Translations under genes and position numbers: made by a program
NCBI GenBank assembly: GCA_036172245.1
Contig: JAYWIR010000006.1
Location: forward strand, 3,906,001 to 3,970,000
From: Raillietiella orientalis
Taxonomy: Eukaryota
Direction of reading: 5' to 3'
Length of the DNA: 64,000 nt
Notes under the pieces: generated by a model
Databases searched by the model: none
What the model was told of the DNA's origin: nothing
Seen by the model: the letters and a program-made list of their open reading frames with translations, nothing else
In this document: one piece after another, positions 34,554 to 55,023 of the stretch
Layout: the number at the start of each line of letters is the position of its first letter
How positions within the stretch are numbered: position 1 is the first letter of the stretch

Positions 34554-37500
34554 AGGAGGGGAAGGAGAAAAAGGAGGAGGAGGAAGAAAAGGAGAGCAAG
34601 AAGTGACAGGGGATCGGAACGAGCGGTTTCTCGATCCGCTCCACGCGCGAGAACCTCGCAACCTTGAAATCCATTCGGACTTGTAAGGAAAAAACGAAAA
34701 AAACAAAAACAAAAAACAAAACAAAAAAAAAAGAGAAAAACGAGCCCTCATCTCAAAGGAGCTTTCTTCTTGTCGTTCTGATGTCCCCCTGCTTGCGTTG
34801 CTGTCAGTGTGCTGTTCCCATTGCCCTTTCCCCTCCCCCCCTCCTCCCCCCTTACGGGCTCGAAATATCAGACTAGAAGAAACTCCACTAGCATCTCTTA
34901 CCATTTGTCTTTCATCTCCGAAATGCTGCTCCACGGTAGCATCGCTTGTACGTTACGTAGAAAACACGTGAAATGGCTCAGAAGCCTGAAGGTTGCTTTA
35001 TTCCCCACGGACTCTGTGCAGCTTGGAAAAAAAAACAAAAACAAAAAAAAAAGGGGGGGGGGGAAATGTGGTGATGAAGTCATCCGCAACTGCCATTATG
35101 AGCATCCATTCGGGAGAGACAAAAAAAAAAAAAAAAAGGAAAAAAAAAAGAAAAAAAAAAAAACCCCCCCACTGTTCTTCACATGCGTGTTCTGGTGATT
35201 GCACCCACCCACAGCACTTGACGTCAAGCCAAACTTCGCGGCGAAAGTTTCCACCGATGTTTCCTCGGTGTTTTTCCTAATTGCGATCCGAGATCTAAAT
35301 GCGCGGGGTGGACTGGACACCCTGGCGGAAGTTCCCTGCTGTTCCGCAACCCGTGCGGTGCAACAGTCGCGCTCAGGTACAACAGATCGAGTCTTTCCAT
35401 AACGATGCTGCTGTTTCGACAGTAACCTATCAAATGGTCTTCCGATAGCTGTTTGTCATTTTGTGGCTTCGACGGATTCGTCTCCCCGCCCTTCCCCACC
35501 CCTTTTTTTCCTTTTTTTTTTTTTTTTTAGGAGCTTCTTCCATTTTATTATGTACTTCCGTTTTTCCGAGTGGTGATCGTTCACGCAGGTGTCGTCGAGT
35601 TCCACCTAGCCGGTGATCGTTATCAGACTGTGCGTTCGTGTCCGATAAGGAGATGGAGATCTCGTACCACGTCGCTGCGGTGGGATCCGTGCACTCAGCC
35701 GCAGGAGCGGCGGGGTGGTCTGCAGAATCCCGTAACGCGGAGCACGTCGCACAATTCGGCGTGCCGCCGAGCCAACGTCTTTCCCGCCACGTTCCCGAAC
35801 CACGAGTTTCGCGGCCGGGCCGCGGCGCCACCTCTTCCCTCTCCGTGGGCTCCAGCGCGGTTTCCAACGGCAGCCTCTCGCGTGCACCATCGGCACACAT
35901 CCGCAATGCGAGGAAAGCGCTTCCTTTTCGGCGCCCCCCCCCCTCCCCGAAACTCCTCGAGTTGGTCATTGGCGGGAAAAGGAAAAAGCAAACGAATGGA
36001 CGACCATCTTCTGTTCCAAAGTGCGGAGGAAGGAAAGAAAGGGGAAAAAGCACGCTGTTCGTGAGGTTGAAAAATTTCGGCCGAAGACTTCTTCTTGGAA
36101 CCGTGAAACCACGTGCCCCTTCCCAAGGATGCAAGTGGACTGCCGAGGCTGCTTCCTGTCGAATTCGTGGGTGGGGATCCGCATTTGGCTGGAACTTTTG
36201 GCGGGAATGAAGTAGTGATTCGAATCACGAGCTCGCCGCACCGAGAGCTGCAGCTGGGGAAGCTGGTGGTCGTTCCAGTTGTTCGCCAGCAGTCCCCCCC
36301 CCCTATCCTTGAGAAGCTCTTCGACTGGTTCCCCAGGGCGAGGCACGGAGACGTGGGGAAAAGACCCACGGCTGCGTTTGTGATTCCCTTCCTCGTGGGT
36401 TCGGTCGGAGGTTCGCGTCGGGAAACGAACTGAGCACACCCACGGGCCGAGCTGCACGATCTGCTTCGAGTTCCAAAAGTACACCTTCGAGGGGTGTGCG
36501 CGCGGTCCCAGAACCGTGCGCCGTCGACGTTCTGTGTAGTTTGTGTGTTTGCAAAATTGTAAAGCCACGTATTCCGATGTTCATTCGACTGTAAGTGGAA
36601 ATAAAAAACAAACAAGCAGTGCACTTGACAAGAAACGGTGTTCCGGTGCTTCTGGTGAACGGATGCGAACGTGCTGGAGCTGCATCCAGGATGTTTTCTT
36701 TTGCCTCGTTGATTTCTTTCCAGGATTAAACCTTCGATTGTCCTGCTGGCGAATTCAGGGGCGCGGTGTACGTGCACCTCCCTCGTTCCCAGTTGATGGC
36801 GGCCACGCACCGCTCGGTCGTTGCTGCACGGGAAGGGGGGGGGGGGATGCGCACGTGACTGCCATCGCCATGACTACCACTGTACTGTTGACTGCTGGAA
36901 CATGGGCTTCCAGGGAATGAGCGTCTTCAAAGTCGATACGATTGATAAGCGTGCCTTTTCCAGGATGCGTCCTGCTCCTCCATGCATTTTGCACGACTCC
37001 CGAAAATCTTCCCGAGGTCGTGAAATTGACGATGGTGGCGACCGAAAAAATTCAGTTGATCCTAAGACGCGCGTAAGCTCGACACCGACACTCCACTCGG
37101 CGGTTCGAATAATTTTACCGAACAAATTCGGTCATGAACTCTTCTTGTATTGGCGCTGAGCAGTCTCGTGTAGCATAACATAAAAGGCTCTTAACGAAGC
37201 GCCACTTTTGACAACATCACAAGGGAGATTCCCCCCCCCCCTCTCTCTCTGTCCAAAAGGGCTGCCACTACAGAAAATTGTCCCAAGCTAGCCGTAGACA
37301 AATTTTCAAGCACAAAGCTGGAAGTGCTTTCCATAGGAGCCGTCTTTGGAGGGTCCACACCATCCTGAGTGAATCGGATAGGAGTGCTTCTTAGCAAAAA
37401 GCATTCTCAACTAAGTGATCATCAGAATTTATTACGTATTGCCATGCATCACCAGTGTGCTCCATGCTCTTGAGGTAGCTCCTCACTCTGCCAGATATCC

Positions 37501-39868
37501 AAATGGGAAGCAAACAACCCCCTTCATTCTGTAATCATGAAAAATCGTGAAACAGTTCAACACGATTAGTGAGGTAAAGGGCGGCGGCAATGCAGGCGTT
37601 CCATCAACGGCGTGCTTTCCTCATATGAACATCTCTTTCGTGTCGGAGCTGATTTGGCGGTGTTACATTCTTACATTCAGGTGCTGTCCTTTTGCTGAGT
37701 ACAGAAATGGGTTTACCAGTTGAACACTCTCAGGAACTGAGAGCCGCGGGGTGGGTGTCCAGTTGCTGTTTGAACGCCTTCTCAATGCAGGGAATCTCCC
37801 AAAACAAAAAGGTCATCGGTGCAATGGGAATGGCAACCTCCCGTGGAAGGCAAAATTGCGAGGGAGCAATCCCCAAAACGTTCCATTAGCAGGATGTATG
37901 GAAAATTCATGAAAGTAGCTTTTCACGAGCGGATACGACCAAACACAAGCACTATTCATCATTCGTCTGTCTAGGGAAAAAGTTGAATCCAGTTCATTTT
38001 CCAAGGCCTGGGTCTGACCAAAGCATCACTCATGCTTGATGTGGTGATGATGATGCATCTAGCGATCCTGAATGCACCTCGGTCCAAAGGCTTCAGAAAC
38101 TGTCCACTTCCTCAGTTTACGGCGGAGTAGACAAATACCAAAGGCTTTGCTAAAGGCTTTTTTTCCTTTTCTTTCCTTTTTGCATGCTGCTTTAGAAGCA
38201 CACGGGAAAACAATTCGGTATTCAGTTAGGAGTTTTAGGTGCACTGGAGAGAGTCCGTTTCCTAAGAGCTGACTTTTCGTAGTCGATTATATTTTCCCCT
38301 TTACTTGCTTTGTTCGTTTTCTGGTTGAAGAATGAAAACCAGTTGCTCCAAGTTATCTTCGATTTCATCCATCTATTTAAATAGAAGTAGCATGGCTATT
38401 GCAGTTTTTGCTCTAAGAGACATTACAAATGGTTTCGCCTTGAATTCACTTGAGCTCTTGAGGGGAAATCGTAGATGCCCATTCGCGGAAACTCAAGAAA
38501 CTCAAATTGTGGCCAACCCTCAGAATATTCACCATCCAGGCCTCAAGAGCCCATCCAATCTCTGGTTCTGAAAGATCTCACTTGTCTGTCCACCAGATGA
38601 ACAAAGCAGATTCTGGTTCGGCGAACTTGCTTTGCTTTGGGGCTCAACTTGCCCAAGTTTCGAAAGGCGACAGAGAGTGGAAAAGTAGAGTACTTACACA
38701 AAAAAAAAAGGAGGAAAGCAAGAACTGAAAATCGCTCGAACTGATAGGGCCTTAGCAGCTTCTCAATGCTTTGGGCGTAAGTTTTCAAATCCTCTCCTAA
38801 GGATTAAAGACGATGTAGGCTGCAAACAAGTGCAAACCATCATAGGTCCCATTCGAGCTGTTGGAGAAGGCTTACAACATCGTTGTAAAAATGCAAAGCT
38901 TGCATGAGAATGATGTTGGACAAGCTTTATGCATTATTCAAACGACCGTTTCGAAATTCTGAATCTCCACATCCGTATGTGTCGAGCAGGAAGGATTGTT
39001 CTCATCAGCTCACTGAGCATCCGATAATATCTTGGATTCCGGAGTCGCCATACACGAAATCTCAGTTTCATTGAGGTTCCTCTTTTTTTTTTGGTTTGAT
39101 CTTCAAGACCGCTGTTGGGATTTCACCCACACTCTGCCGCCTGAATTTGACACACGAAATATGGAAAAAGCGGCCTTCGCGGTAGATTTGAAAACATTTA
39201 CTGAAGTGGAATATACATCAATACATAAATTATCAGAGATGCCTTTCATGGCACACAGAAGCCATGATAGTTTTCGCGAACCGGTGTGAAATCGTACACA
39301 ATCGTTTTTAAGGAACAAATGCCTCCCTCCCAGATAAAAAAAAACAAAAAAACAAAAAAAAATGGATGGATATTTTATCTACATGGTTCGATACATCAGA
39401 TAGCAAGATTTCAGGTGCTGGAACAAAAGGGAACACAGGCAAAAGCAGCTTCTTTGCACGGAATATATTGCGTTTATGATTATTACTTCATGAATTCGTT
39501 TGAGGTTGTCATACGTGGTAACTTCTGCAATGGAATGCATTTCCTGAAGTTGAAAAGATCCCAAAATTCGTTTTACAAGAAGCACCCTCTGGTTTTGAAC
39601 TTTGCTAGGGGATGTTTCAAGAACGCTGCGCTTACTGGAAGTCTCAAGCAATGAATAAATATTACATTTTAAGGAATGCCACGAGGATTTTTGTTTTCTT
39701 CCCGAGTTGCATTCGTGTTTGCGACACCCAGTTTCGTAGAAGCATTCTATAAAAGACCCTTGTCTTCAAGAAGGCTAACAGTATTGGCATCCTAGAGGGT
39801 GGCCATGACGGCGTAGGATGGAGGCTTGAAGGCTTCAGCGGATGGTGATTTAAAAAGTTTCTCGCAGG

Positions 39869-40239
39869 TGATGCTCGATTCTCAGATCGCAAATGATGTG
39901 CACGCCTATTTAAGCAACCTTTCGTGCACTTTTCGTGCCCAACTCCCTGGATACGAATCCTCTTGCATTTTACTGCCCGAGACCTTTCGGATGTGCCTTG
40001 AAAAGATGCTGGGAACACGTAACTGCATCTCCGGTTTCCTGGAAACTGGCATCATCGAGTTTCAGCCACGTCGTGTTCGCCAACACACGTCGTGTATCGA
40101 TTCGTGCAAGAACTTCCAAAGATCTGTATCCCGTGGAGGGAATGTTTACCGGCACCGGGGATGCATCTTTGCTTACGGGATGCTGCGCGGGGAAAACGAA
40201 AAATTCCACGTGAAACTTGGCCGGAATCAAATAAACTGA
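39869..40239 (+). mobile_element. Possible pogo/Tigger-type DDE transposase C-terminal remnant
   Basis: FRMCLEKMLGTRNCISGFLETGIIEFQPRRV resembles the post-DDE motif (NI.SGF..TGI.P..P..V) of pogo-like transposases. No TIRs seen. Confidence 0.25.
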
Positions 40240-40873
40240 GGTTTTGGCAATAAGTCCAAAAATGGAAAAAAGAGAGGGGAAAGGGCAGTGGGAATTCACA
40301 GGAAGCAGCAGAGAGCTCCAGAGAAATGTCTGTGTGTGTGTGTGTGTTTTCCCGCCGTGTACGTGTCTGTCGGAAGGCACGCATGCAGCAGCAGGGCGAT
40401 GGTGCACTTTCGCGAGCGTTGCAGTGCAGCCCGTGCCGGGGGGTCCTGCCTTTGTGAATTGCAGCAGAAGCAGCAGCTCGGGAAGATTTCAAATCTCATC
40501 CGCTTCGCCCGAAAGAGGCGTTTCCTGTTTGTTTCTCCTGCCTCCTGCAGTTTCCAGCGGGAGATCGGGAGGACCTCGGTTGGCCCCAGGAGAGAATGCT
40601 GCTGAAACCTCGGATTGACGCGTGTTTGCGGGAGAGCGTGCTTTTAGGTACAGTAAAGACGATTTTGCAATGGGTATAATCTGTACAAGACATTTCTTTC
40701 CTTCGAGGAAAGAGCGGATTTTCGTCACCAGCGGAAAAAGCGTGTTGTAATGTAATCTTAGGAGGAAAGTCGGATCGCTGCTCCTTCTCTTCTGGGTAGC
40801 TGTTTTTTTTCTTTTTTTTTTTTCTTTTTTTTGGATATTCACTCACTGCTTAACCGTTCTTTCCCGTCCCCAT

Positions 40874-40899
40874 TATATATATATATATATATATATATA
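40874..40899. repeat. (TA)n microsatellite at the GC-rich to AT-rich boundary
   Basis: Direct reading. Confidence 0.9.
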
Positions 40900-41427
40900 A
40901 TGGGGACGGGAACCCAATATGTATACATATTTATTGGTACACATTTGAAATATCATCTGATTAGAAAGCCAAATTTTCAATTTAAGAAAAAAGCCTAGTG
41001 CTATGGAAATCACTCCCATCAAATCCAAATAATTCACAAACGAATTTTGTGAATTATGAAGCGATTGTGAAAAGTCCATCGTGTGATTTTGTGAAGATTG
41101 GCTCTCCGTTGCAGAGTTGGTGTGGCTTAAACTTTGCAAAGACTCGCCTTTGCGAATTCTCGAACCCAATGACGGGCTGACGAACGAGCAGTCGCGTATG
41201 TAATTCATGATTTTCAGTGTAAGAAATGAGATGTAGTGAGTACATTCATAGTTATGTGATCAATAAAACATACTGCAGTCAGTTGCCTCATGGCCGTGTT
41301 AAAATAATATGGTTGACGATTGTATTCCGAAAAGTTGATACCGCATTCACCAGCATCCTCCAAACAGCAGTTTTGGAAAATTGGGAGGTGGTGGCTTTTC
41401 GGTTTCGTGTACAGTACGCTTCCTTCC

Positions 41428-41481
41428 AGTTATATATATATATATAACTCGAAGTTATATATATATATATATATATAACTT
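41428..41481. repeat. Two tandem palindromic AGT(TA)nACT units
   Basis: agttatatatatatatataact cg aagttatatatatatatatatatataactt. Confidence 0.8.
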
Positions 41482-41519
41482 CTAAACTGGAACGTGTCAA
41501 GTTTCTATTCAATCGGTTG

Positions 41520-44500
41520 GCACATTCGTTAATTTTAGGGATATTGTTAATGTGTAATTAAAAGACAGTAAGATTGTTAGTGTTTTTATGTATTCAAATT
41601 CTTACCCAAAATTGATTTTTTTTGCCCTTCATTTTAATATAAATGCCTCAGATCAAAAAAATACTAATCTTGCATGTTACAAATACTTTGATGTGTGCGC
41701 GCGGTTTTTTTTTGATGATTGTATAGTTTTCAGATAAAATTTCAAAAGTTGAAGTAATGTTTGATTTGACAGAGATATCCATATGCACATATGTGTTTAA
41801 TACATGATGCACAGTTCACTAAACCTTCAAGAAAATCAATTCATCTAGCGATGTATTTGCCATGAAATAATTAAGTGGTGTTACATAGGAGCAACAGATA
41901 CATTTCATTCTCACCTCTTTCATAGCCTGTTGTTTTTATGAAATATATAGCTTTGCAATTTAGGAATTGCTATTAGTGTACGTGCTTATTATTGTATCCA
42001 ATTTACAATGTCAGCATATGATTATTTTTCTGTTACTGCACTTAGTATTTGGTATTTCATTTTCTGCTGTTTGCAAAAGTGCCCTTGGAGATGGCATTCT
42101 GTTGTGTTATCAGGAAACGGATAATTTATTTAATTTTCGTAATAATTTCTCGTGTTTATGCAATTAACTTGCATACCATACTGCCATTGTAGAGATGAAT
42201 GTTTTGTTTTTGTTTTTGCACCAGTTAATTTTGTAAAGTTGATGCATTTGCTGTCGGTTTTCCTGTTGAATTATTTGGTTTTTGAGGAGTCGATACAAAG
42301 CAGAATTCTTAATTTTTATTGTACACCATAATACAAAGAATAATTTGAATTTTTGGTTTCATTTTTGATCATTTTAGATAACTTAACAAAGGAAAATGTA
42401 AATTCATAGATAAGAGTAATTTCAAAATTTTCGTGTTTATTGTCTGTTCATTCATATTAGTTTATTCATCTGAGCTTTCTATTTTTGAGTGGTTTACCAT
42501 TCATTCTAAACCAAACCGTCTATGGTCAGCTGTAATCTATTTTTTTCCTTCAATCAATCAGTTGATCTGTAAAGCAAGAATTCAATAATGCAAAGCTCAT
42601 TTTTTTTTACCCTTAGCTCATTTTTCACTTTTAATACTCTTGTGCATTCAGTTTGGCATTTGTAATGTTGACTGTTACCATAAACAAGTAAGTTTACAAA
42701 GTAATTAGACTGGAAGGAATTCACACTGATAGCAGTCTTTGTAGAACATGACTTAGTTTGTCAGTTTAAAATCGGCAGTTTTCAAAATTGATCTATAATT
42801 TAATATTATTTAAATAAATGCAGAGGGCATATGCATTAAACTCTGTGGCAAAGGAAGAAAAAATTCCAGTTTTAATTTTTTTAAAACATTTGAATCAATC
42901 AAAAATAACTGTTTGGTATCTGATTTATTATTCCGAGTTTGGTTTTCTGCAACAAAACAAATTTTTGCTCAATATTGTGCACTTTGCATGCATTTAGATT
43001 TTATTTTCTTCCTTTTTTTTGCGTAATTTTCCTTCATTCCTCCGTATGCTTGATTTCTTTTCTTTCATTACACTATTGCTTTTCTTGCATATAACCATGT
43101 TTTGTTTCATTTATTGTTGTGACATTTGAAAAAACCTGTAGTCTGTGTTCAGCATGTGTTAATATCTTTGGATTTTTTTTGTTCCTGTTATCATTTTATG
43201 CTATCATCTGATTTCTCAAATAAGATTTCTCAGCATCACATTTGTTTTGAGAGATAATTAATTTATAACATTAGTTCATGTTTATGAGGATCTCTTGCTT
43301 ACTATATTGACTAGCTAGTCCTGTGCATTTTACAATCTAATGCTAAGATTAACTTTAATAGTATATGGTCTGCACTTTCTTTTCATTTATTTACTCATAG
43401 ATGGACAGGAGAATTTTGAGCATTTATTAGACTTAATTGTATAATGTTCTAAATGTTGCAGTCTGCAGTGACTTGTGCCACTGAAAGCATTTATAGTGTT
43501 CACATGGATCCTGTTTTTGCATGTGTTTTCTTTGTATTGATGGTTATGCATTTATAGTTTACATGATCATGTTTTATTGTCTAAATCGTTTGATGATGAT
43601 AGATGTTACCTGATAGATGTTGAAATATTTGCTAAGTGTTTTTCACATAATATGTATTTGTTAATTTCGTTTTTATCCACCATTATTCATGCACTTTTTT
43701 TTCTTGAATGTGAAAAGTGAAGTTAGTTTTGTTGATCTGCAGGTGTAGGTTGAAAACCCATCAGATCCTTGCATTTTGGCCAGTTTCTCATTTCAGTTTT
43801 GTTCCATTTTACCCTTTCGACTGATACTGTGTGCCCAACTGTTTTTTTGTCCAACTAACTGTGTGAGTTTTATAGTTTACTTTTTTCATATTTCTAATAA
43901 GTTCAGGTGCCAATTTATGCAATTAAAGATTCCAATGAGAGTTTGATGTCTCAGGAGTTAATAATTAGCTTGATGTCTTGGATTAACTTTCTGTAATTTG
44001 AAATACGGAAAGGGTTTTGTTTCAATAATGAAATCTGCCCTTTATGCTACAGACTGTGCCTGCTTGCTGTTTGCCATATTCATGCTTGTTCTGTTGTTAA
44101 ATGGCTCCTTGTGCTTTTGTCACTTTTTGTTGGAAAACTGCTGAAGATGTTTTAATGTAACTACCTTATTTCTGGTGAAACAGACACTATGCTGCAAGGG
44201 GTATTGTTATTGTGACTTTCAAATTGTGCTTCTAACATGCATCTTTTGAGCATGATTCCATTTAAAGTGATATTAACTCAGTATGTCTGGTATATGGATT
44301 TTTATCTGGACAAGTTGACTGAGCAAAATATGTTGATGTCCACGTAATGTCCATGTAGATGTTTAAAGAATGTGTTTAACAAGTATTGTTTCTGTTCCAG
44401 TAAAGTAATTGTGTTTTTTTCAGTTTTCATTGGAAATACTTTGAAGGTTTTGTGAGTTTTATTTAATGCAAAAAATTAGTGGTTGCAATCCCCCTCCCCA

Positions 44501-46748
44501 ATCAGAAGTATGAAATTTAATTATTCTAGTTATTTCATGATTTCTTCTGACTGTAATGGCGACAAATATCCACATTGCTTCTTGAGATTGCATCAAATGT
44601 TTCACATTCTTCAGTTTAAATTATGAACTGAAAATCAACTTCATTTTAAAATGTATGTTTGTATGTAGAACTGGGTTAACTCTGTGTTGTGAGTGGGATG
44701 TAATGCAAGCAAGTATTGTTTGTTTTTTTTGTTTGCATTATGTGTCCCCAAGATTATGTGTATAGCTGATATTAAAGATACGAAAAGGTATCGGTATAAT
44801 TGAAAACATTGTTCATGGTGCTTATCATCACATGGCAACCGTAAATAATAAACATCAATCATATTCAGTTGTAAAGTGCGACTTGGCATTACTAATGCTA
44901 GAATATAAGGAACATGCTGTTGTAAGGGTCCTAATGTAAACAGTATCTTGGAGAAAACATGGTGCTAAGATAAGAACAAATGAGTTATATTTAATCCAGA
45001 GTGGTGTAATATAATTTGGTTTCTCAAAAAATCAATATTTGTGTGCAAGCTTTAGCATCGCTTTAAACTTGCAATTGATTTTGAGGTAATGCATAAAGAA
45101 GTCTTATGATCAGACCAGTAAAATAATGGAGTATTTACCAGGTATTGAATCATGTTAGAACATGTCTAGAGATTAAGAAATTTTTCAACTTCGGACATGT
45201 TCTGGTGGAATAAGGTAGATACATGCATTAAGCATTTAGTTTGCTTTTGCACTTGTTCTATTGGTGATGTTCAAGAAATTTAACGTCATTTATAATCCAA
45301 GGAATAAATCTGTATGCATAGAGTAATAATGTACCTAAAAGTGAAAATATAATGTGGTTAGGTTGCCAACAAGTTTTTTGGTTTTCTCAGTGCTGTTTGG
45401 TTACATTTGCTTTGCCAGATTCCTAGATGAGATCTTCAGATTTGGCGATGTGAGTCACCTGTTATCCCACAACAGTGTAGCTGGGAGAGTGTGTATGTTA
45501 TTTGCATCAGAGTCATACTCTTATCACACAAAACATTTGCATTCATACATTCATCTACACACGAATCAGTCTATACATGTTCAGTTAGTTTCCCCATGTA
45601 CTGATGTACTCTGATCTGTGTTTATACAGTGTTTAGAGTCTTTTCAAAGGGATGCATTTCAGCTTCATCAGGAGTCATTATGTTCCAGATGAAATCTTGA
45701 TCCATTTTGCAAAGAACTGTCTCTTTTCCTGTTTGTATCTTTTTTCCCCAGTTGTAGGGCCTTTTTCTGAAATTTATGAAACAAATTGTTTCAATTTTTT
45801 CCATTATGATTAGGCTCGTGCATCCCTTACCATGTGGGCATTTGTTGCAGAATTCTCTCATCTCTCTCAGAATTCTCTATACAGCAAAGCATCAAGAATC
45901 ATTCTATTTTTCACCATTTTCTCATCAGTTTACCACCTGTGTAGAAGAAACAGGAATAAAAGTACTTGTAAGAAATCCTATGCAGGTAGCATCTGGGTAG
46001 CTGTTAATTCTACTAAAATTGAACTCTTGATAATGAGCAAAGAAATTGGCATAACTTGCAATATGGAAACCGGATGTGCAAAAAAATCAAGAGGCAATGA
46101 GGCACGTTATAATGGAGAAAGTTTCAGGTATGCTAAAGTTCATCATTCGGAAAATTAATTTGTTTTGAGTTTTATTTTAAATTTCATGCTGGAAAGTGAT
46201 TTTTTTCAGTTTTATGAGAGTAAGTTTGTGGTATTTTTTTGTTACATTATTCTTGCAATGAGTTGAAAGCATTTCAAATTATGAAGGTATGATGCAGGTA
46301 TGTGTACATAGTAACAAACGTAGCAGTCAAAGAAAGAAGGATTTAGGGCATATGGTATTTTGTTTGGTCCAGGAATTGAAAGGAACTTTAGATAAGGTGC
46401 AGTAATCAAAGGAATGATGTTTTTTCTTATGAGCTCATAATCAATGTGAAAAATTCACCAGGATTGTGTACCAAAAAGTGTTTGAAGTTTTATGATGCTA
46501 ATTTTTGAAACTTGTAAAAATCCTCTAGTCAACTGTGCAGAAAAAATGGTCAAATAACAGTAGGAAGGACTTGAACATATATTAGGCATGTGATTTTTGA
46601 AACTCTGATATATTTGCATTTAAAACATTTTTGTATTTAATTACCTCTGAGAACGGAAATGTTTGGATCTTTTAAGGCACTTTTCCTTATTCATGATTTA
46701 GACAATTTAGTCACTAACAAAAGAAGCTTAATTCTCTGTCATTTTCAG
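41520..46748 (+). ncRNA. Candidate multi-exon non-coding or 5'-leader transcript with structured introns (snoRNA-host-like), ending at the acceptor before SMIM20
   Basis: No credible ORF over 5 kb, with strong T excess on + and scarce CpG. Micro-exon-like units: ttttcag|41734-41753|gtaatg, ttttcag|44424-44451|gtgagt and ttttcag|46210-46219|gtaagt. Final acceptor attttcag at 46748. Many stem-loops. Confidence 0.4.
41766..41905 (+). ncRNA. Candidate intronic box H/ACA snoRNA
   Basis: Hairpin (41766-41830), then an H box AGAAAA (41830-41835), then a hairpin (ATCT/AGAT and ATGTA/TACAT stems), then ACA (41900-41902) + 3 nt. It lies inside a putative 172-nt intron (41754-41925). No target verified. 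Confidence 0.35.
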
Positions 46749-46763
46749 TTTCATAGTGCTAAA

Positions 46764-47053
46764 ATGAGATTGAATAACTACAAAATTTTTGCTTGTTTTG
46801 GAACAGCAGTCGGCATAGTTATTTTACCGATAATTATATTTCCTATGTTCAACCCTTCTAAATACAGTGAGTGTATGTGTTTACTGTTAATGCATTGAGA
46901 TTGTTCACTTTTCAGAAAAGATTCAGAAGCAAACTCGTAAACTTCCACTTGAACAAACTCAGCCTGGAGGTAAAATCTCTAGATTGTAGTGAATGTAGTT
47001 TACAAATTTTCCCAGGAATGAGAGTCTGGAGTAATCCATTTGATGAGAAATAA
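46764..47053 (+). CDS. SMIM20: Small integral membrane protein 20 (MITRAC7 / phoenixin precursor family), 64 aa
   Basis: Exons 46764-46866, 46916-46969 and 47016-47053 (GT-AG introns of 49 and 46 nt) give MRLNNYKIFACFGTAVGIVILPIIIFPMFNPSKYKKIQKQTRKLPLEQTQPGGMRVWSNPFDEK*. It has one TM segment, YKKxQ...R, and C-terminal QPGGMRVWSNPF matching the SMIM20 QPPGLKVWSDPF signature. Confidence 0.9.
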
Positions 47054-47065
47054 GAATCCTTATCA

Positions 47066-49250
47066 ATGGCATTTCCCTATAATCTTAAATTGTTAGATGA
47101 GCGACATGTATCTACAGCCATTGAGCATTTACTTTGGTCTCCAAAGATGGATCTTTTATTACTTGCCAATAGTCAGGGAGATGTTATGTTACACCGACTT
47201 TCCTGGCAGAAAGTTTGGCATAAAAGATCGATTCAGGAAGGTGTTCAAGTGTGTTCTTTGGCTTGGCGTCCTGATGGAAGAGTTGCTGCTGTTGGATATG
47301 GTTCAGGTAGGCATAATGGAGGAGGGTGGTCTCTTCAATTAATGATTTTTCTTTCTTTTCTCAGGCCAGTTAGTTCTCTTGAATATTGAGACTGCTGAAG
47401 TATTACATCAGCATGAGCTAGGTGATGCTGTAGTGAGTTTGCATTGGATAGAAAACAGCGATCAGTCCATGCCTGAATGTTGTGGTTTTGAATACATCAA
47501 TTATCTGCCATCTCTGCCAGCTTTGCCTAACAGAAATGGAACCATGAAGCAAGATGACAGTGGAAACGATTACTTATCAGATTTTCCCGAGTCAAAAACC
47601 AGCAAGAACATCAATGTTTTGGTGGCTGGTACAGCTCAAAGAACTGCATATATGTTTGCTTTGGGCATGTTTTTGTGTGGATTTGTGACTTTTGAAAACT
47701 CCGATAAGGTGTTGCAGCATGTATTTCTTACCAAAAACTTTAGTCAATTAATTGGTGTCTTAGTCCCTGAAGATGCTGGACTAATTACTGTGTACCAAGC
47801 AAACACAGAAGTACTCCACAACTGGAGAGTTCCGATTTTTTTGTTTGCTGGACAGCATTCAACTCTTCTTCATTTGTGTACTTATATCCAAAATACCATT
47901 CAAGCTATTCATGATGCCTGGGAAGATGTGCTGTTGGATATGGATGCAAAGCTAGAAGCATATGCTCGTTCATGTCCTGGAGGGTCAGCATCAGCGGATT
48001 TTCTAGATCTTCTGATGTTTGGAACAGCATCTGATCAGTTGACCAGTTTTCTTCTGCAACAGCTCAATATGAAAGCTCTGAAGAAAACAGGTCATGCTTT
48101 GGAGCTTAGTTACACCAACATCCAGAAGCTGTTGTTGCATCACCTGCAACCTGCTGGCCATCATCTGCTTCTCAGACTGCAACATCTGCATGGTTTGGGT
48201 CGCATGTACCCAGTGTTGGGGCTGGAACTCGAGTCCTTGGTTTCTCTGCGCAGAGCAGCAGAAACCTTTCTTTGCAAAACACTAGAATTACAGCAGTTAA
48301 TTGATAGCTCTGTACGCAGTTTACAAGCATTTTATCGCTGGGTACATGGAGTTATTTTAAGAATGGCAGAGGATTCAGAACCTGAGCCTAGTCATTTAAC
48401 CCAACAAGATTTGAGTTCACTGGCTATATTTTTGGATCATCATTTCTCGAAATACGAACAAAGAACTTCTGACGTTCCTTGCAGCTTAGACAAAGTGGGT
48501 CAGTATTTACAAGATGCTGATCTCCCTTTCCTTCCCCGTGCTACATCTCCATGGGCAGCGTTTCTGAAAACAGTGCCTGAACTTCAAGACATTGATATGA
48601 TATTTGTAGATGAACCCCGCAAGTCCTTAGTGCAAAAATTTAATAGCCTCCAGAAAAGTTTGCATCAGATCCTTACTCAGGCCACTGCTTCTTTGCAAGC
48701 AAATATTATGCCTCCTGTTCCCATCCTTACTGATCGTAATCTCTGTGGTGATTCCGTTCGAGCAACTTTCTTGGATCCCTATTGTGCACTGCTCCCTGTC
48801 AGAAGTTCAGCCTCGTCAGATCTCTTCATTTTAAATTTGAAATCCCCTCAAGAAGTCCAAGGTCTCTGTGTGGCATTCAGTCATCCTGAATTGCAGACCA
48901 TGATCAGTAAACTTCAGCCTATCGATGTTGGCTTTTATTCTGCAGAACAGTTGTTTGTGCTTTTAGGAAACAGCACCAGTTGTGTTCTATTGCACTTTCC
49001 TTTAGGCTGGTTCCAGCAATTTTTTCATCCCGTTTCATCTTATTTTGCACAGATCACAGATATACAGCAACCTTTATCAGGTGCTAGCTTGAAGAAACTG
49101 GATAGTTGGAACGCTCATAGTTTTGCAGTGAGTGGACTTCGTAAAGTGATAGCCATTTTGTTCAAAACGCAGAAGAGATTGCGTCTATATGAGACAGAAG
49201 TGGAAGAAGAAGAAGAAATTTTTCGTGATAGCATTAACGTTGAAGACTGA
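47066..49250 (+). CDS. ANAPC4: Anaphase-promoting complex subunit 4, about 708 aa
   Basis: Exons 47066-47306 and 47365-49250 (58-nt GT-AG intron, phase 1). WD40 N-terminus LLWSPKMDLLLLAN..G.V.LHRLSWQKVW...LAWRPDGR; helical region AWEDVLLDMDAKL...ADFLDLLMFG.AS..L..FL; C-terminal FAVSGLRKV...RLRLYETE. Confidence 0.95.
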
Positions 49251-49811
49251 TCAACTGCTCACGTTTTGCCTTGTGGGTGGTAGCAAGTGTGATTCCCACC
49301 ACTACCCTTAGAAGTGTTTGTTTTTCCGGTTATAAAGATAATAGTGCGTATCTGGTCGTGGGGCAAAGTGTGCGCGTGTATCTGCTCAAGCAGTACCTTT
49401 ATTGCAGCAACCGAATGATTGCACAGTGATAATAATGGTATCCCTTATTGTGGTGTTTCACTCAGCAAGCTGGTAAAATTTCAAAGTGGTTATGATGAGT
49501 CGCTTTTCTTGAGCTTGCCAAAAGCAGTTTAGTGTAGTGCCAAGCTTCCCGTTAGTCCAGACCTAGGTCCGAAGGGTGTGTGTGTTTCGATGAAACCTTA
49601 GCTTGCGTGGTGTCAACGTGTGTCACGGAGGCGCTCTTTTCGCTGTTTCGTCTTGAATGCCCAAACGCTGGCTTGATTTTTGTTTCGCCCTCCGTTCGCC
49701 TCTCTCCCCCGTCAGGAGATGCCTTGATGGCGAGAACAGCGTCTCTAAAGGCCTTGTCAGCAGCTAAAACCTTCGTACTTCGTGGCTGCGGTTTGTGGCG
49801 TTGGGCGGGAA

Positions 49812-49814
<3 letters not shown>

Positions 49815-49842
<28 letters not shown>
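49815..49842. repeat. (GT)14 microsatellite
   Basis: Direct reading. Confidence 0.9.
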
Positions 49843-50108
49843 CTGCCACCGAGAAGTCGCTCCTTTTGCAAGATGATGACTCAAAAAGAGTACCATTCTA
49901 CCTGCCCCCCTTTGTGCGAAAGTTTAGGCAAAGTGGAAGTTGGAAAGCCAGCCCTGTGCGATGGATGTGAATCAGTGCCCTTACGAAATATAAACATATG
50001 TTTTCAGTGACCTATTGTTTGTTTACAAAGTGTGCCTAATTCACGTTTCTGGGTTGGGAGTGACAGTGTTTTCGCTTTGTTTGTGACTCACGCCTTTTCG
50101 GTGGTGTG

Positions 50109-50117
50109 CGCCATTTT
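50109..50117 (+). promoter_or_regulatory. YY1-type motif CGCCATTTT in the likely 5' region of the SR gene
   Basis: Matches CGCCATNTT about 130 nt upstream of the ATG, in a CpG-containing stretch between ANAPC4 and the SR gene. Confidence 0.3.
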
Positions 50118-50237
50118 GACACATTTGGGTAATGAATTTCATGCAGCAGCGTTGTACTTTGCAGGTGTCAGCAATATTCAGAGTGGCTTAGAAACAGTTT
50201 AGCCTGTGTTAGTAAAGAAACAGTTTGCACCAGTGCG

Positions 50238-52446
50238 ATGCCTGAGAGTCGGAGTAGATCCACCAGCCGGACCAGCAGCAAGACCAGCAGAAGCAGCAGC
50301 AGACACAGCAGACATAGCAGACACAGCTCCGAGGGGAGCAGCAACAGCACGTCGAAGGACGGCGTGCGTTTGCACGTGGCCGACCTCGGTACGTAAAGGG
50401 CTGCCCGGCGACCCCTCCTCGACGGAAGGTTCCTCTGCAGGTCTCGGCGTAAGCAAAAGAGAGCTGGAACGTGTCTTCGACAGATACGGACGTGTGAAGG
50501 AGGTGTTCCTGGCACGCACCCCGCCGTGCTTCGCTTTTGTAATATATGAAAATAAGGGGGACGCAGCGGATGCAGTGAAAGGAGTCGACGGACAGTAAGA
50601 CTTGTTTGTTGTTTCTCACGGACTTGAAAAAAAAAGGAAAAGACGGGAGGGGGGACCGAACACGGGCGAGCCATATCTGCCAGCCATTGCTGCCGTGCCG
50701 TGCTCACTTTGCCGCGTGTGACTTTTCCAGCATCATCGGCGGCCACCGAGTCCGGGTGACCTACGCCCTGCCGCGCACGCGTGGAAGAGGGAGAAGATTC
50801 GACCCCAGCATGAGGTGCTTCCAGTGTGGCCAAAGAGGACATTTCTGCAGGGACTGCAACAATACGAAATACGGCTTTCGTAGGTCTCCGTATGGGTAAG
50901 CTGCTTACCAAGAGCTGATGATCGTGGATCTCCTTCATTAGCATGTTGCTATACACGTATAGGTGTCAGCAGCATTGAAATGTTTGCGAGCTTTTGATGT
51001 AAAAGACAGATCCTTACTAATATTTGTAATTTCTAGAGCAATTTTGCTTGTAAGTTCTTTCAAAAGACGTTGAAACAATTGGTTACGATATTTTCCTGCT
51101 GTAAAATTTTCAGTAAACTGAACTTTGTCATAGGATGTGTTGTAATGGTTGGTAATGAAGTCTTGTGATTGGTTGTTTGATGATGGCCAGTGGTTGGGTA
51201 CATGGGAGATGATGATGGCTGTGTTATTTGCTGTCACAGACGGTAGGTATACTAACCATAATAGGCGAAGTTGCTTTTGCCCTATCCTGTGTATCCGAAA
51301 TTGAAACTTCACAGTTTTTGTTTTTGTTTTGTTTTATTTGTTTATTTAAAATTGTACTTTCGTTGTCTTATCAAGACCTCAGAACAGCTGCAAGCACCGC
51401 ATTCCATTCCATTATTCATAATAGGAGGAATGAAGAAAGATGTTTGAATGAGAGAATCACAAGTAGATCCACGTTTCACGGAATTAAAAATTCCAAAAAG
51501 GGATTTTTTCTCTTTCCCCCGTTACATATGTATCTAAACTCAGGCGTGCATACATGTGCATGTATAAGATAAATGTGAATGTGTACTTTATTTATGAATC
51601 CGTACTTTTTGTCCAGATTGTTGAGCTTGTCTTTTAGCAGCTGGTGACAGCGATAGGAAATCATGTGGAGTAGCTTTTTAAGCGCATACTGCGGTTGTTT
51701 CCCTTTCTTTTGTTCTATCAGAAATTATCTAGTTCGACGGTGTGTCCACTCCGAAAGAGGGGGTCAGTATACCCCGTGTACCAGAAAAAAAAAAAAAAAA
51801 AGGAAGAAACGTTTCCGCGTGATGCCGCTCTTCCAGGCTGGGTGGACGGCGCGAACTGCTCAGTCGCGTCCACTTCCGGGTCGTCGCCGCGTGACGTGGG
51901 CGGCGGCACGCCCGGCCACCCGGCGGAAGTTCCCGTCTTCTTGGCGCGCTCGGCGCGGCGACTCGGCTGTCGTAGGGCCTCTCCAGATGATGATGATGAT
52001 GATTCCTCCCCTCCCTCTTCTCCAACCCATCTGGTGCAGCCACAGGTCTCTTTCCTGCACGTCCGTGAACTGGCGTTTGCAGATGCTGGTGCAGCTCTCC
52101 ACGTGTTTTTTTTGAGTACATTTGTGCGTGTACACGGGTGGCTCGGCACGGGTGCCTCCTCGTCCAACGTGAAAGCGAAAGTGTCGAACCTTCGTCTTCG
52201 CACTCATCGCTCCAATTAAACGCCAGGATCGGAAAGAACGTTCCGGCGTTGTCCAGCCGCTTTTATGATTTTTCTGTACCGTTTAGAAATTCTCCCGCCG
52301 CTCCCCCTTTCGCTTCTGATTCCTTGTTCCCCAGATCGCCTAGTCACAATCGCCGTCGAGTACCGAGGGAGAGATACAGATCCACATCCAGACCAAGGCA
52401 TCGATCCAGATCCGTCTCAAGAGGCCGTTCTCGCAGGGATGATTAA
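50238..52446 (+). CDS. SR splicing factor with RRM + CCHC zinc knuckle + RS tail (SRSF7/9G8-like family), about 193 aa
   Basis: Exons 50238-50388, 50441-50594, 50731-50895 and 52335-52446, all GT-AG and phase-compatible. Protein: MPESRSRSTSR...VRLHVADLGLGVSKRELERVFDRYGRVKEVFLARTPPCFAFVIY...RVRVTYALPRTRGRGRRFDPSMRCFQCGQRGHFCRDC...RSPSHNRRR...RSRSVSRGRSRRDD*. Confidence 0.92.
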
Positions 52447-52585
52447 GGTTGGTTGCGAACGAGGCTTCTTCCTTCCGTAAACGGGAAAAGGGGGATGTGC
52501 CTTCAGGAAGAAGCCCATTCAGCCACACTCCAGCGTTTCACGACACTCTTTGGGTTAATGGATTGGACGTTGATGTTTAGAGAAT

Positions 52586-52591
52586 AATAAA
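52586..52591 (+). terminator. Likely polyadenylation signal of the SR gene
   Basis: AATAAA 140 nt after the stop codon, followed by T/C-rich sequence. Confidence 0.5.
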
Positions 52592-55023
52592 TGTTGAAGA
52601 ACCTTTCTCTCTCGCCTTGTTCTCGTATGTTCTCCGTGCCTGCAGCATGCTCCGCGAGGGGGTCTCCACATCCTTCAGCCCACGGCGCCTTTTCGGGACG
52701 CAGCCTTTCCTGGGTGTGCGGGGTCGCTTCCGTCCCTGCAGCAGCCCCGCTCTCCGGACCACCGCACCCGAGCGAGCAGCGAGTCCGCAGATTCTTGGTG
52801 GTAGAGCTGATGGCGCTCAGGTGCCAGGAGATTCCAGTCAAGGCCAAGGAGCCAACTGCCGGATGGATGGATGGATGGATGCTTGGGGAGGAGCTGAAGA
52901 GCACTTGTGAGCGGACGATGGGCAAGAGGGTGCGGTGAAACGCGGCGTTCGCGCACCGTAACTCACACAAGGCGAACGCCGTTGGGTCTTCCCAGAGCTT
53001 GGAATCCCCCTGGAGCGACTGCGTGCTTCTTGTGGCTTCTCCGCGACTCGGCTGCGCCGTCAGCCGTTGGGCACCGACTTGCAAAAGAAAGGGAAACGAA
53101 AGCGAAACCGAAAGCAGAGGGGGCCGTCACTGGGGACGAGGAATCGCTGCCGCCATGCCAACCCGGCAGCGACCCACGGCAGGAACGCGACCGTGCTGGT
53201 ACGCTCGCGTGAATTTGTGGGGGACAGGCAAACCAGGAGGTGCCTGCCCCCTTCCCGCTGCCGCACAGAGTTGAGTCAGCGCTCGGCTCCTCCCCGACGC
53301 GCGTTGCCCGCGTCCGGGAAGGCGCACGCGTCGCGCTCTCCCCATCTCGCCCCCCCCCCGATGGAACATCCTTGCTTCGGGACCAGTAACTCTGTTGATC
53401 CTCCTCCCTTGCGTCCAGGCAGGGACTCCCGGGGGCGTTCGCGCGGCGCCTCGCAAAAACCCACGGGCGTCGCTCGGTGCCTCACGCTTCGATCGGAGCG
53501 TTCCCGTCGCCCAGTGACGGGCGCAGAGCCATCTTTTGGGGCGGGCCGATCCAAGATGGCTGCTTGTTTTGTCGTCGTACACCGGCTAAGGAGGAAGAAA
53601 AGGCTTGTCGACGGGCCCGCGGGCTCACCTCCGAATAAACCGAAACAGGAAGATCCACTTCCCGGGGCGATTGGAACGCGACCACACTTCCTCCCTTGAG
53701 GGGCTCCTGAGGTGGCGGGCCAACGAGTTGTGCTCGTCGGCTGGTTGTTGGAGCTTGGGGACGGACGAGGTTCCCCGTGACCAGTCCGCAGGGGTGATCC
53801 GCGGCCGCGCATCGCGCGTGAGAAAGGCATGCAGTCCCGGGAGAAATTCGAACAGGGCGGACGTCGCGGCTCGTGGCGCGCGCCTCGCGAAACAAAGGAA
53901 TCCCCGTGAGTTCCCCTACGCGCGGACAAGGAGGGACCGGGGACCCGGGAACCCTAGGAGAGGAGTCGACACTCCCCCGCGGGTTCGTGGGCACACGTTT
54001 TTCGAGGGAAGTGGCGACGGTTCTTTTAGGTGCGCGCGGACCTCGGCGAGCGGATGCGCACCGCTCCCGCCTTCGGCAGCGCGTCGAGGTTGTCGGGTTC
54101 GGCCGAAGAGGCCGAGCACGAGGCGCTCGTAGTGACCACGCGGATGGCGGAGCTGGGTCGGGCGCGCGTCCCGGGAGCGGTGACGGGACGCCCATCTCGT
54201 CTCGCAGAGGGATTTCCGGGAGGTCGCCGCGTCCATCAGAGTCATCAGGCGCGATTGCGGTCGTGGAGAAAGGTCCAGGGAATCTTGCGGAGGTGCGGGC
54301 GGGGGAAGAGTACCAGATTCAGATTGCCTGGGCGTCGCCATGGAGGCGGTCACGGGAAGCTGACCTTAAGTGGGAGGTTTGGGCGGACTCGTGCCCGAAC
54401 GAGGGAGTTCGCGCGCCTCCTCCCCCCTTGACTCTTGCTGGTAGTTGCAGCAGAGTGAAAAGGCCTCCCGACGCCTCCCCGGCCCCGACTAGCCGGAGGT
54501 GCCTCGGTTGCGGCATTTTCCTGGACGGGAGCGATCAATCAACTGCACGTGGTTTCGCTGTCAGACCGGGCAGATCGTTTCCTAGGCGACTCTCCTTCGT
54601 CCGCGATGCAGACGAACCGGGAAAGCCTGGCAATTTCCGGAGCGCCGGGGAGAACAGAAAGCTGCCATCTGCTTCCGTGGTTGTCCCGGACAGGGTATGT
54701 GGGGCGTTGTCCCCGGGAAGAGCCAGGGTTTCTCGAAAACCGCAGCCACTGTTAGCGGATGCTGGAAGCGGTCCGTGTGAGGGGGGAACGGACCTGCACG
54801 AGGGGCATGGGGGGAAGAGGAAACAGGTAGGAGCGGCCTTCGCGCCCAGGGCATTACCCTGGAGCGCTCAGACGGAGGCGTGCCCTCCTTGGCTTTCATA
54901 TCTGTTGCTTCCGGGGTAGCGGAGACCCTCCATCTGGGGTAAGGGAAAGGAGCCCCGGCAGCGTCTTCCGAGTTGACGGGGGTAAGAGGCGGGAAGGGGG
55001 ATGAGGAATCTTCCTGCCTCCGG

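Follow-up and report, generated by a model that had tools for sequence, protein, structure and literature searches.

SMIM20 and ANAPC4 lie 12 nucleotides apart in Raillietiella orientalis: a candidate dicistronic transcription unit

Dicistronic gene pairs are already known as a class in arthropods. In Drosophila, FlyBase records 159 of them, corresponding to 2.5% of gene models (PMC4528330), and the stop-to-start distances given in the example rows of File S1 of that publication comprise overlaps of 4 and 34 nucleotides (nt) and spacings of 0 nt, 5 nt, 11 bp and 89 nt. Few of the partners are functionally related according to its main text, and the word "unrelated" occurs 272 times in File S1 for about 334 gene rows. 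We describe here a candidate pair formed by SMIM20, encoding a small single-pass mitochondrial protein of respiratory-chain assembly, and ANAPC4, encoding an APC/C (anaphase-promoting complex/cyclosome) scaffold subunit, both located on the forward strand of a 64,000-nt stretch of the Raillietiella orientalis genome (assembly GCA_036172245.1, contig JAYWIR010000006.1, positions 3,906,001 to 3,970,000). This whole stretch is hereafter referred to as the window, and all coordinates are counted from its first nucleotide.

A close parallel is provided by sloth1 and sloth2 (CG32736/CG42308; human SMIM4 and C12orf73), two small mitochondrial proteins produced from one mRNA by leaky scanning (PMC9681215). 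In both pairs the upstream open reading frame (ORF) encodes a small single-pass mitochondrial respiratory-chain assembly protein, and the two ORFs share the same strand with a tiny spacer, of 5 nt in sloth1-sloth2 and 12 nt here. The sloth genes differ in being both small paralogues acting together, whereas SMIM20 and ANAPC4 are unrelated partners and the second ORF extends over 708 codons; they combine a weak first Kozak context with an optimal second one, whereas the first is strong and the second weak in the present pair, and their dicistronic mRNA has been demonstrated, while SMIM20-ANAPC4 is known from its genes. Mocs2/CG42503 (MOCS2A/MOCS2B), with 11 bp from stop to start, belongs to the same distance class as the present pair, and the partners in the other FlyBase pairs are mostly functionally unrelated, as are SMIM20 and ANAPC4; the FlyBase pairs rest on cDNA, RNA-seq and start-site data, whereas the present one is deduced from genomic sequence. 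An APC/C subunit is also carried with an unrelated protein on the dicistronic transcript of Drosophila lemming (lmgA = Apc11, lmgB; PMC3372440), which differs from the present locus by the identity of the subunit, its position as the upstream cistron, a spacer of 89 nt and the additional monocistronic expression of both genes. Same-strand tandem genes with a virtually zero intercistronic region are likewise found in the spliced-leader (SL) operons of Ciona and Oikopleura (PMC7986045), but these need a spliced leader and a usable downstream acceptor, whereas the AG of the present spacer is pyrimidine-poor and the host is probably an arthropod. As a dicistronic-type pair, SMIM20-ANAPC4 was not found in print: no report of SMIM20 as bicistronic was retrieved from the literature, where SMIM20 or C4orf52 appears with ANAPC4 only in vertebrate region lists, a Tribolium small-ORF paper mentions neither SMIM20 nor ANAPC4 (PMC13670568), and neither APC4 nor CG32707 occurs in the searched supplementary files of the Drosophila study (PMC4528330).

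Both gene models are secure on the sequence evidence (coordinates in Table 1), and the gene identities, exon structures and coordinates given in the original prediction, an earlier reading of this DNA, were upheld by Pfam matches and by recomputation of the spliced ORFs. The three exons of SMIM20 give a spliced product of 64 aa ending at the TAA at 47051-47053, which matches the Pfam family PF15061 (DUF4538, SMIM20 family) over profile positions 5-57 of 57 (E=2.9e-14, 53 bits, for a curated cutoff of 27 bits). Its two introns are both in phase 1, in agreement with the structure that is conserved, from choanoflagellates to mammals, in genes of the SMIM20/phoenixin precursor (PMC9004410). Following the supplement of the same publication, the end of exon 1, at ...(E/K)Y, is placed as in the genes of mammals, amphioxus and Tribolium, the layout ...KY / 18 aa / GMRVWSNPF... 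agrees with those of the same genes, and the C-terminal motif fits the VWS(D/N)PF of homologues; among the SMIM20 peptide motifs sought in this supplement, VWSNPF, common with amphioxus, was the sole one found. Decoding of the TAA as a sense codon was considered and dropped, as SMIM20 homologues stop at or near the same position and no other sign of a variant code was observed.

The ANAPC4 ORF is composed of two exons and encodes 708 aa without internal stop, with an N-terminal ANAPC4_WD40 domain (PF12894, E=4.4e-18) and a central ANAPC4 domain (PF12896, E=1.1e-39). The predicted protein aligns to homologues over residues 1-689 at 27-37% identity, and its first methionine lines up with that of 10 full-length homologues. 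Since the frame upstream is closed by the SMIM20 TAA itself and the first methionine is aligned with those of homologues, position 47066 is the true ANAPC4 start. In three termite-like contigs (L001-L003), the tblastn matches to ANAPC4 also start at residue 80, which is where exon 1 ends here. All three introns of the pair are in phase 1, so that a splice from SMIM20 exon 1 or 2 to ANAPC4 exon 2 stays in frame; the resulting hypothetical chimera would join the SMIM20 membrane segment to APC4 devoid of its first 80 residues.

The original description of the spacer between the TAA and the ANAPC4 ATG as 12 nt long, in frame and stop-free was confirmed, but about 26% of 12-nt spacers with the local base composition would show the last two properties by chance, and these are not significant. 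It is the 12-nt distance itself that stands out. It does not reflect a general compaction, because the window is gene-poor, the neighbours lie about 14 kb and about 1 kb away and the introns of the upstream gene, VGLUT, are kilobase-sized; the closest mapped upstream coding exon, the VGLUT exon ending at 32706, is 14,058 nt from the SMIM20 ATG and the next downstream gene begins 988 nt past the ANAPC4 stop. SMIM20 and ANAPC4 thereby show the arrangement of a dicistronic pair, with two non-overlapping same-strand ORFs too close for separate processing signals. No AATAAA or ATTAAA was found in 46400-50300, and neither a TATA-like nor an initiator-like (Inr-like; TCAKTY) motif occurs between the SMIM20 ATG and the ANAPC4 ATG. 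The sole AG of the spacer region (47053-47054) is preceded by 8 pyrimidines out of 20, versus 13, 13 and 18 out of 20 at the three real cis acceptors, and these absences bear out the earlier claim that the junction leaves no room for separate signals. The only two TCAKTY matches in 46400-47066, TCATTT at 46739 and TCAGTT at 46745, are situated just 5' of the SMIM20 ATG. The second belongs to the motif TTTTCAGTT, which is both Inr-like and of acceptor quality, suggesting that the SMIM20 5' end is either a transcription start at this place or a spliced junction. A junction hairpin whose loop contains the UAA and whose 3' arm includes the ANAPC4 AUG (-9 kcal/mol, z = -2.6) was rejected as a signal: 12% of 1,200 43-nt windows taken in 44000-50000 and 16% of 511 in-locus windows fold at least as well, and longer junction stretches gave folding z values of -0.8 and 0.0.

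An interval of 12 nt is too short for a 3' untranslated region (UTR) and cleavage site followed by a promoter and 5' UTR, so that transcripts of SMIM20 necessarily extend into ANAPC4. Co-transcription of the two genes is likely and represents the most economical reading of the sequence. We tentatively favour, with a confidence somewhat short of even, a single transcription unit that would give rise to a mature dicistronic mRNA, with little APC4 produced, either through termination-reinitiation or by way of a minor isoform. Transcription would start at a promoter just 5' of SMIM20, or in a non-coding exon further upstream, joined to the acceptor at 46748, and in the simplest case the transcript would continue through ANAPC4 to a common 3' end beyond 49250. 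A mature dicistronic mRNA is plausible here because arthropods make such mRNAs routinely, as illustrated by the Drosophila precedent. Cap-loaded ribosomes would produce SMIM20 efficiently owing to the strong context of its AUG, and the output of ANAPC4 would be much lower. It could depend on 40S subunits retained past termination at the UAA and re-initiating 12 nt downstream, or on a minor isoform without the SMIM20 AUG, for instance with exon 1 skipped, in which only an 11-codon upstream ORF (uORF) would be left.

The AUG contexts bear directly on the choice between these routes and those of the original prediction, which had also put forward leaky scanning and stop-codon readthrough. The SMIM20 AUG at 46764 lies in the near-optimal AAAATG context (gctaaaAUGa), and the ANAPC4 AUG has a T at -3 (ttatcaAUGg). 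Four AUGs precede the latter in the spliced SMIM20 mRNA, three of them in frame (46764, 46845 and 47018) and one out of frame (47043), which opens a 17-codon ORF overlapping the ANAPC4 start. Leaky scanning is disfavoured, because the first AUG is strong, four AUGs stand before that of ANAPC4 and the order of the Kozak contexts is reversed. APC4 would more probably be obtained by termination-reinitiation, or from a minor isoform devoid of the SMIM20 AUG. Readthrough of the stop codon, or an exon skipping that preserves the phase, would instead generate a functional membrane-anchored SMIM20-APC4 fusion, to which the in-frame, stop-free spacer and the common phase of the three introns would both lend themselves. 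The former property has the frequency by chance given above, and an agreement in phase is expected about once in three. Furthermore, the SMIM20 stop is a UAA followed by G, probably among the least leaky stop contexts, SMIM20 homologues terminate at or near the same position, and a SMIM20-like part was found in none of 181 ANAPC4-family proteins (blastp with SMIM20, best E 1.2). A functional fusion thus appears scarcely credible, and the readthrough route is disfavoured as well.

Several observations weigh against the dicistronic mRNA. Re-initiation after a 64-codon uORF with a strong AUG and a gap of 12 nt should be poor. ANAPC4 is also devoid of a canonical polyadenylation hexamer within 1 kb downstream; the organism may use variant signals, so that little can be drawn from the missing AATAAA between the genes. 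The hexamer AATAAG at 47049-47054, which overlaps the SMIM20 stop and is the sole near-variant hexamer close to it, could terminate a short SMIM20 mRNA. The layout was looked for by tblastn in six metagenome loci encoding ANAPC4 relatives (L001-L006), and no conservation of it was found among them, only L006 having usable upstream sequence: L001-L003 have no exon 1 in their contig, L004 has just 33 nt upstream and L005 lacks the 5' part. In the 800 nt 5' of the L006 ANAPC4 start, no SMIM20-like ORF was present. To the absence of SMIM20-like parts from the 181 ANAPC4-family proteins is added that of PF15061 from all 18 N-terminally extended or otherwise atypical ANAPC4 homologues. Lastly, exclusive dependence on the dicistronic transcript is apparent for just 45 of the 159 Drosophila loci (PMC4528330). 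As a separate observation, the 33 nt 5' of the ATG in L004 (positions 1-36 with the ATG) are open in the ATG frame, with a TAA 6 nt before the ATG; the 8 residues encoded upstream are unlike the SMIM20 C-terminus, and the contig is too short to show an abutting ORF.

The same Drosophila loci lend weight to an arrangement in overlapping independent units, in which one or several ANAPC4 start sites inside the SMIM20 gene would give a monocistronic mRNA whose 5' UTR is very short, while SMIM20 mRNAs would end in the 5' part of ANAPC4 or pass through it without being used for APC4. Most of these dicistronic loci also have monocistronic alternatives, for both genes in 45 of the 159 and for one gene in 69, and "Alternative promoter" is found 101 times in File S1 (PMC4528330). 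In the present locus, the AATAAG at 47049 could direct cleavage just beyond the ANAPC4 AUG, and an internal promoter would spare an essential gene an inefficient re-initiation step. The lack of TCAKTY and TATA-like motifs between the two ATGs is weak evidence against such a promoter, dispersed housekeeping promoters being devoid of them; a further difficulty is that the introns are just 49 and 46 nt long, so that the promoter would sit in the coding exons of a conserved microprotein. We regard this arrangement as rather unlikely, while placing it first among the competitors of the dicistronic mRNA.

The acceptors around the junction are more relevant to a spliced-leader operon, in which a polycistronic pre-mRNA would be resolved into two monocistronic mRNAs, the leader being added at the AG at 47053-47054 or at the 47015 acceptor. 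Near-zero intercistronic regions are documented in such operons (PMC7986045): their median length is 1 bp in Ciona, and in Oikopleura they do not exceed 60 bp. The SMIM20 ATG is preceded, at a distance of 16 nt, by a TTTTCAG resembling a strong acceptor, a position typical for trans-spliced 5' ends, and the introns of the pair are very short; the same TTTTCAG is counted 8 times in the 14-kb AT-rich island that surrounds the pair. Conversely, no usable acceptor was found between the SMIM20 stop and the ANAPC4 AUG. The last strong acceptor ahead of the ANAPC4 ATG is that of SMIM20 intron 2 at 47015 (13 pyrimidines out of 20), inside SMIM20, and its use by a spliced leader would compete with cis-splicing of this intron, while the use of the pyrimidine-poor spacer AG would reduce the SMIM20 3' UTR to about 1 nt. 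Genomes rich in operons are typically compact, which the window is not, and no SL RNA, nor any other Rfam family, was detected in its 64 kb, a small sample for such a search.

The affinities of the host provide an additional argument against a spliced-leader operon. An unbiased HMMER search of 1.84 billion protein representatives with ANAPC4 yielded 389 relatives, the best of which show only 32-39% identity; the three named proteins in the top 10 belong to a spider, a cricket and a shrimp. The VGLUT of the window shares about 70% identity with branchiopod VGLUTs and about 60% with vertebrate ones. Word-based searches pointed to insects for the large ANAPC4 exon and to molluscs and annelids for exon 1, full-length identity being 27-37% to both groups. 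The named ANAPC4 matches together with VGLUT suggest that the host is probably of arthropod affinity, and spliced-leader trans-splicing is not known in arthropods outside copepods and amphipods. Taken as a whole, these elements make a spliced-leader operon unlikely, and more so than overlapping independent units.

The 46748 acceptor within TTTTCAGTT, with 16 pyrimidines among the 20 upstream positions, is on par with the real acceptors and raises the possibility of a shared promoter followed by alternative splicing. An upstream non-coding exon would be joined either to 46748, giving the SMIM20 mRNA, or to the 46915 or 47015 acceptor, giving an ANAPC4 mRNA with a single in-frame AUG upstream (47018), the start of an 11-codon uORF that stops 12 nt short of the ANAPC4 AUG. 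The absence of an ATG from SMIM20 exon 2 is compatible with this scheme, and neighbouring genes with common 5' UTR exons are documented in FlyBase (rows of File S2, PMC4528330). It is opposed by the fact that no upstream exon was identified, the upstream ORFs being without Pfam match, and by the out-of-frame AUG at 47043, whose ORF would run over the ANAPC4 start in this mRNA too; alternative splicing from a shared promoter is in our view very improbable. Anything else, for instance an artefact of assembly or annotation, is more improbable still, and ranks above the fusion alone. None of these schemes displaces the dicistronic mRNA as the tentatively preferred reading.

The two genes are also found close to each other in vertebrates. 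On chicken chromosome 4, in the region 73.37-73.51 Mb, SMIM20 (73.37 Mb), SLC34A2 (73.42 Mb) and ANAPC4 (73.48 Mb) span about 135 kb (PMC9361851), and the gene list of human 4p15 gives the order ANAPC4, SLC34A2, SMIM20 (PMC7169634). This linkage is suggestive of an old synteny. A bolder extension would see in SMIM20-ANAPC4 an ancient bilaterian pair, originally a co-transcribed bicistron, maintained as a 12-nt dicistron here and loosened to a neighbourhood in vertebrates, in which expression of the APC/C scaffold would be set translationally by the ribosome traffic over the ORF of a mitochondrial assembly factor; we consider this scenario quite improbable, somewhat less so than alternative splicing from a shared promoter.

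The remainder of the window was surveyed by a tblastn map and by Pfam scans of 265 ORFs, 62 in 36500-52600 and 203 elsewhere. The former set consists of the stop-to-stop ORFs of at least 70 aa, without the four over the ANAPC4 coding region; the latter consists of 202 ORFs kept from 499 of at least 60 aa, after dropping those with more than 47% of R, P, G, S or A, and of one hand-added VGLUT ORF. The coding features found by these scans and the map are VGLUT, the SMIM20-ANAPC4 pair and an RNA-recognition-motif (RRM) protein gene, and nothing more. The VGLUT gene is GC-rich and its introns are of 1-3 kb, versus 46-58 nt for those of SMIM20 and ANAPC4. The RRM protein gene resembles SRSF7 and is GC-rich, unlike its neighbours; a (GT)n microsatellite occupies 49815-49842, between it and ANAPC4. 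The GC content is organized as a mosaic, in which SMIM20 and ANAPC4 are carried by an island of 30-48% GC (38000-52000) between flanks of 50-68% GC, and these flanks contain numerous long ORFs of low complexity, in which R, P, G and A abound and for which no Pfam match was obtained. In the ORF-poor AT-rich region 5' of SMIM20, an 84-aa stop-to-stop ORF on the reverse strand (45622-45876) has an ordinary protein-like composition and no Pfam match, and could be the degraded remnant of a mobile element. Scans of the window for Rfam families, tRNAs and tandem repeats returned nothing.

Table 1. Features of the SMIM20-ANAPC4 locus and of its neighbours in the window
Feature	Coordinates	Strand	Length	Description
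VGLUT (SLC17A6-8 type) gene	19311-32706	+		Matches cladoceran VGLUTs in eight exons, with an identity of 60-87% for each and about 70% for the whole
TTTTCAGTT motif	46742-46750	+		14-22 nt 5' of the SMIM20 ATG; acceptor (exon from 46749) or initiator-like TCAGTT (46745-46750)
SMIM20 exon 1, coding part	46764-46866	+	103 nt	ATG, hydrophobic segment, end ...PSKY, phase 1
SMIM20 intron 1	46867-46915	+	49 nt	GT..AG, phase 1
SMIM20 exon 2	46916-46969	+	54 nt	18 codons, no ATG
SMIM20 intron 2	46970-47015	+	46 nt	GT..AG, phase 1
SMIM20 exon 3	47016-47053	+	38 nt	Encodes GMRVWSNPFDEK, then TAA
Spacer GAATCCTTATCA	47054-47065	+	12 nt	In frame, stop-free
ANAPC4 exon 1	47066-47306	+		80 codons + 1 nt, start of the WD40 domain
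ANAPC4 intron	47307-47364	+	58 nt	GT..AG, phase 1; acceptor with 18/20 pyrimidines
ANAPC4 exon 2	47365-49250	+		Ends with TGA at 49248-49250
SR-protein-like gene	about 50238-50900	+		Arg/Ser-rich N-terminus, RRM PF00076 (E=6e-9), zinc knuckle C..C....H....C (by eye)

The original prediction had further proposed that the arrangement couples respiratory-chain assembly to the supply of the APC/C. This idea is unsupported and belongs to speculation, few of the dicistronic partners of Drosophila being functionally related (PMC4528330). If no mRNA spans both ORFs, the locus would merely add a pair of dicistronic appearance to a group in which this arrangement concerns a few percent of genes. If such an mRNA exists, the locus would offer a clean natural case in which a conserved 64-codon uORF with a strong AUG ends 12 nt before an essential ORF of 708 codons, and, because leaky scanning is hardly possible there, it could become a useful test bed for termination-reinitiation in animals.

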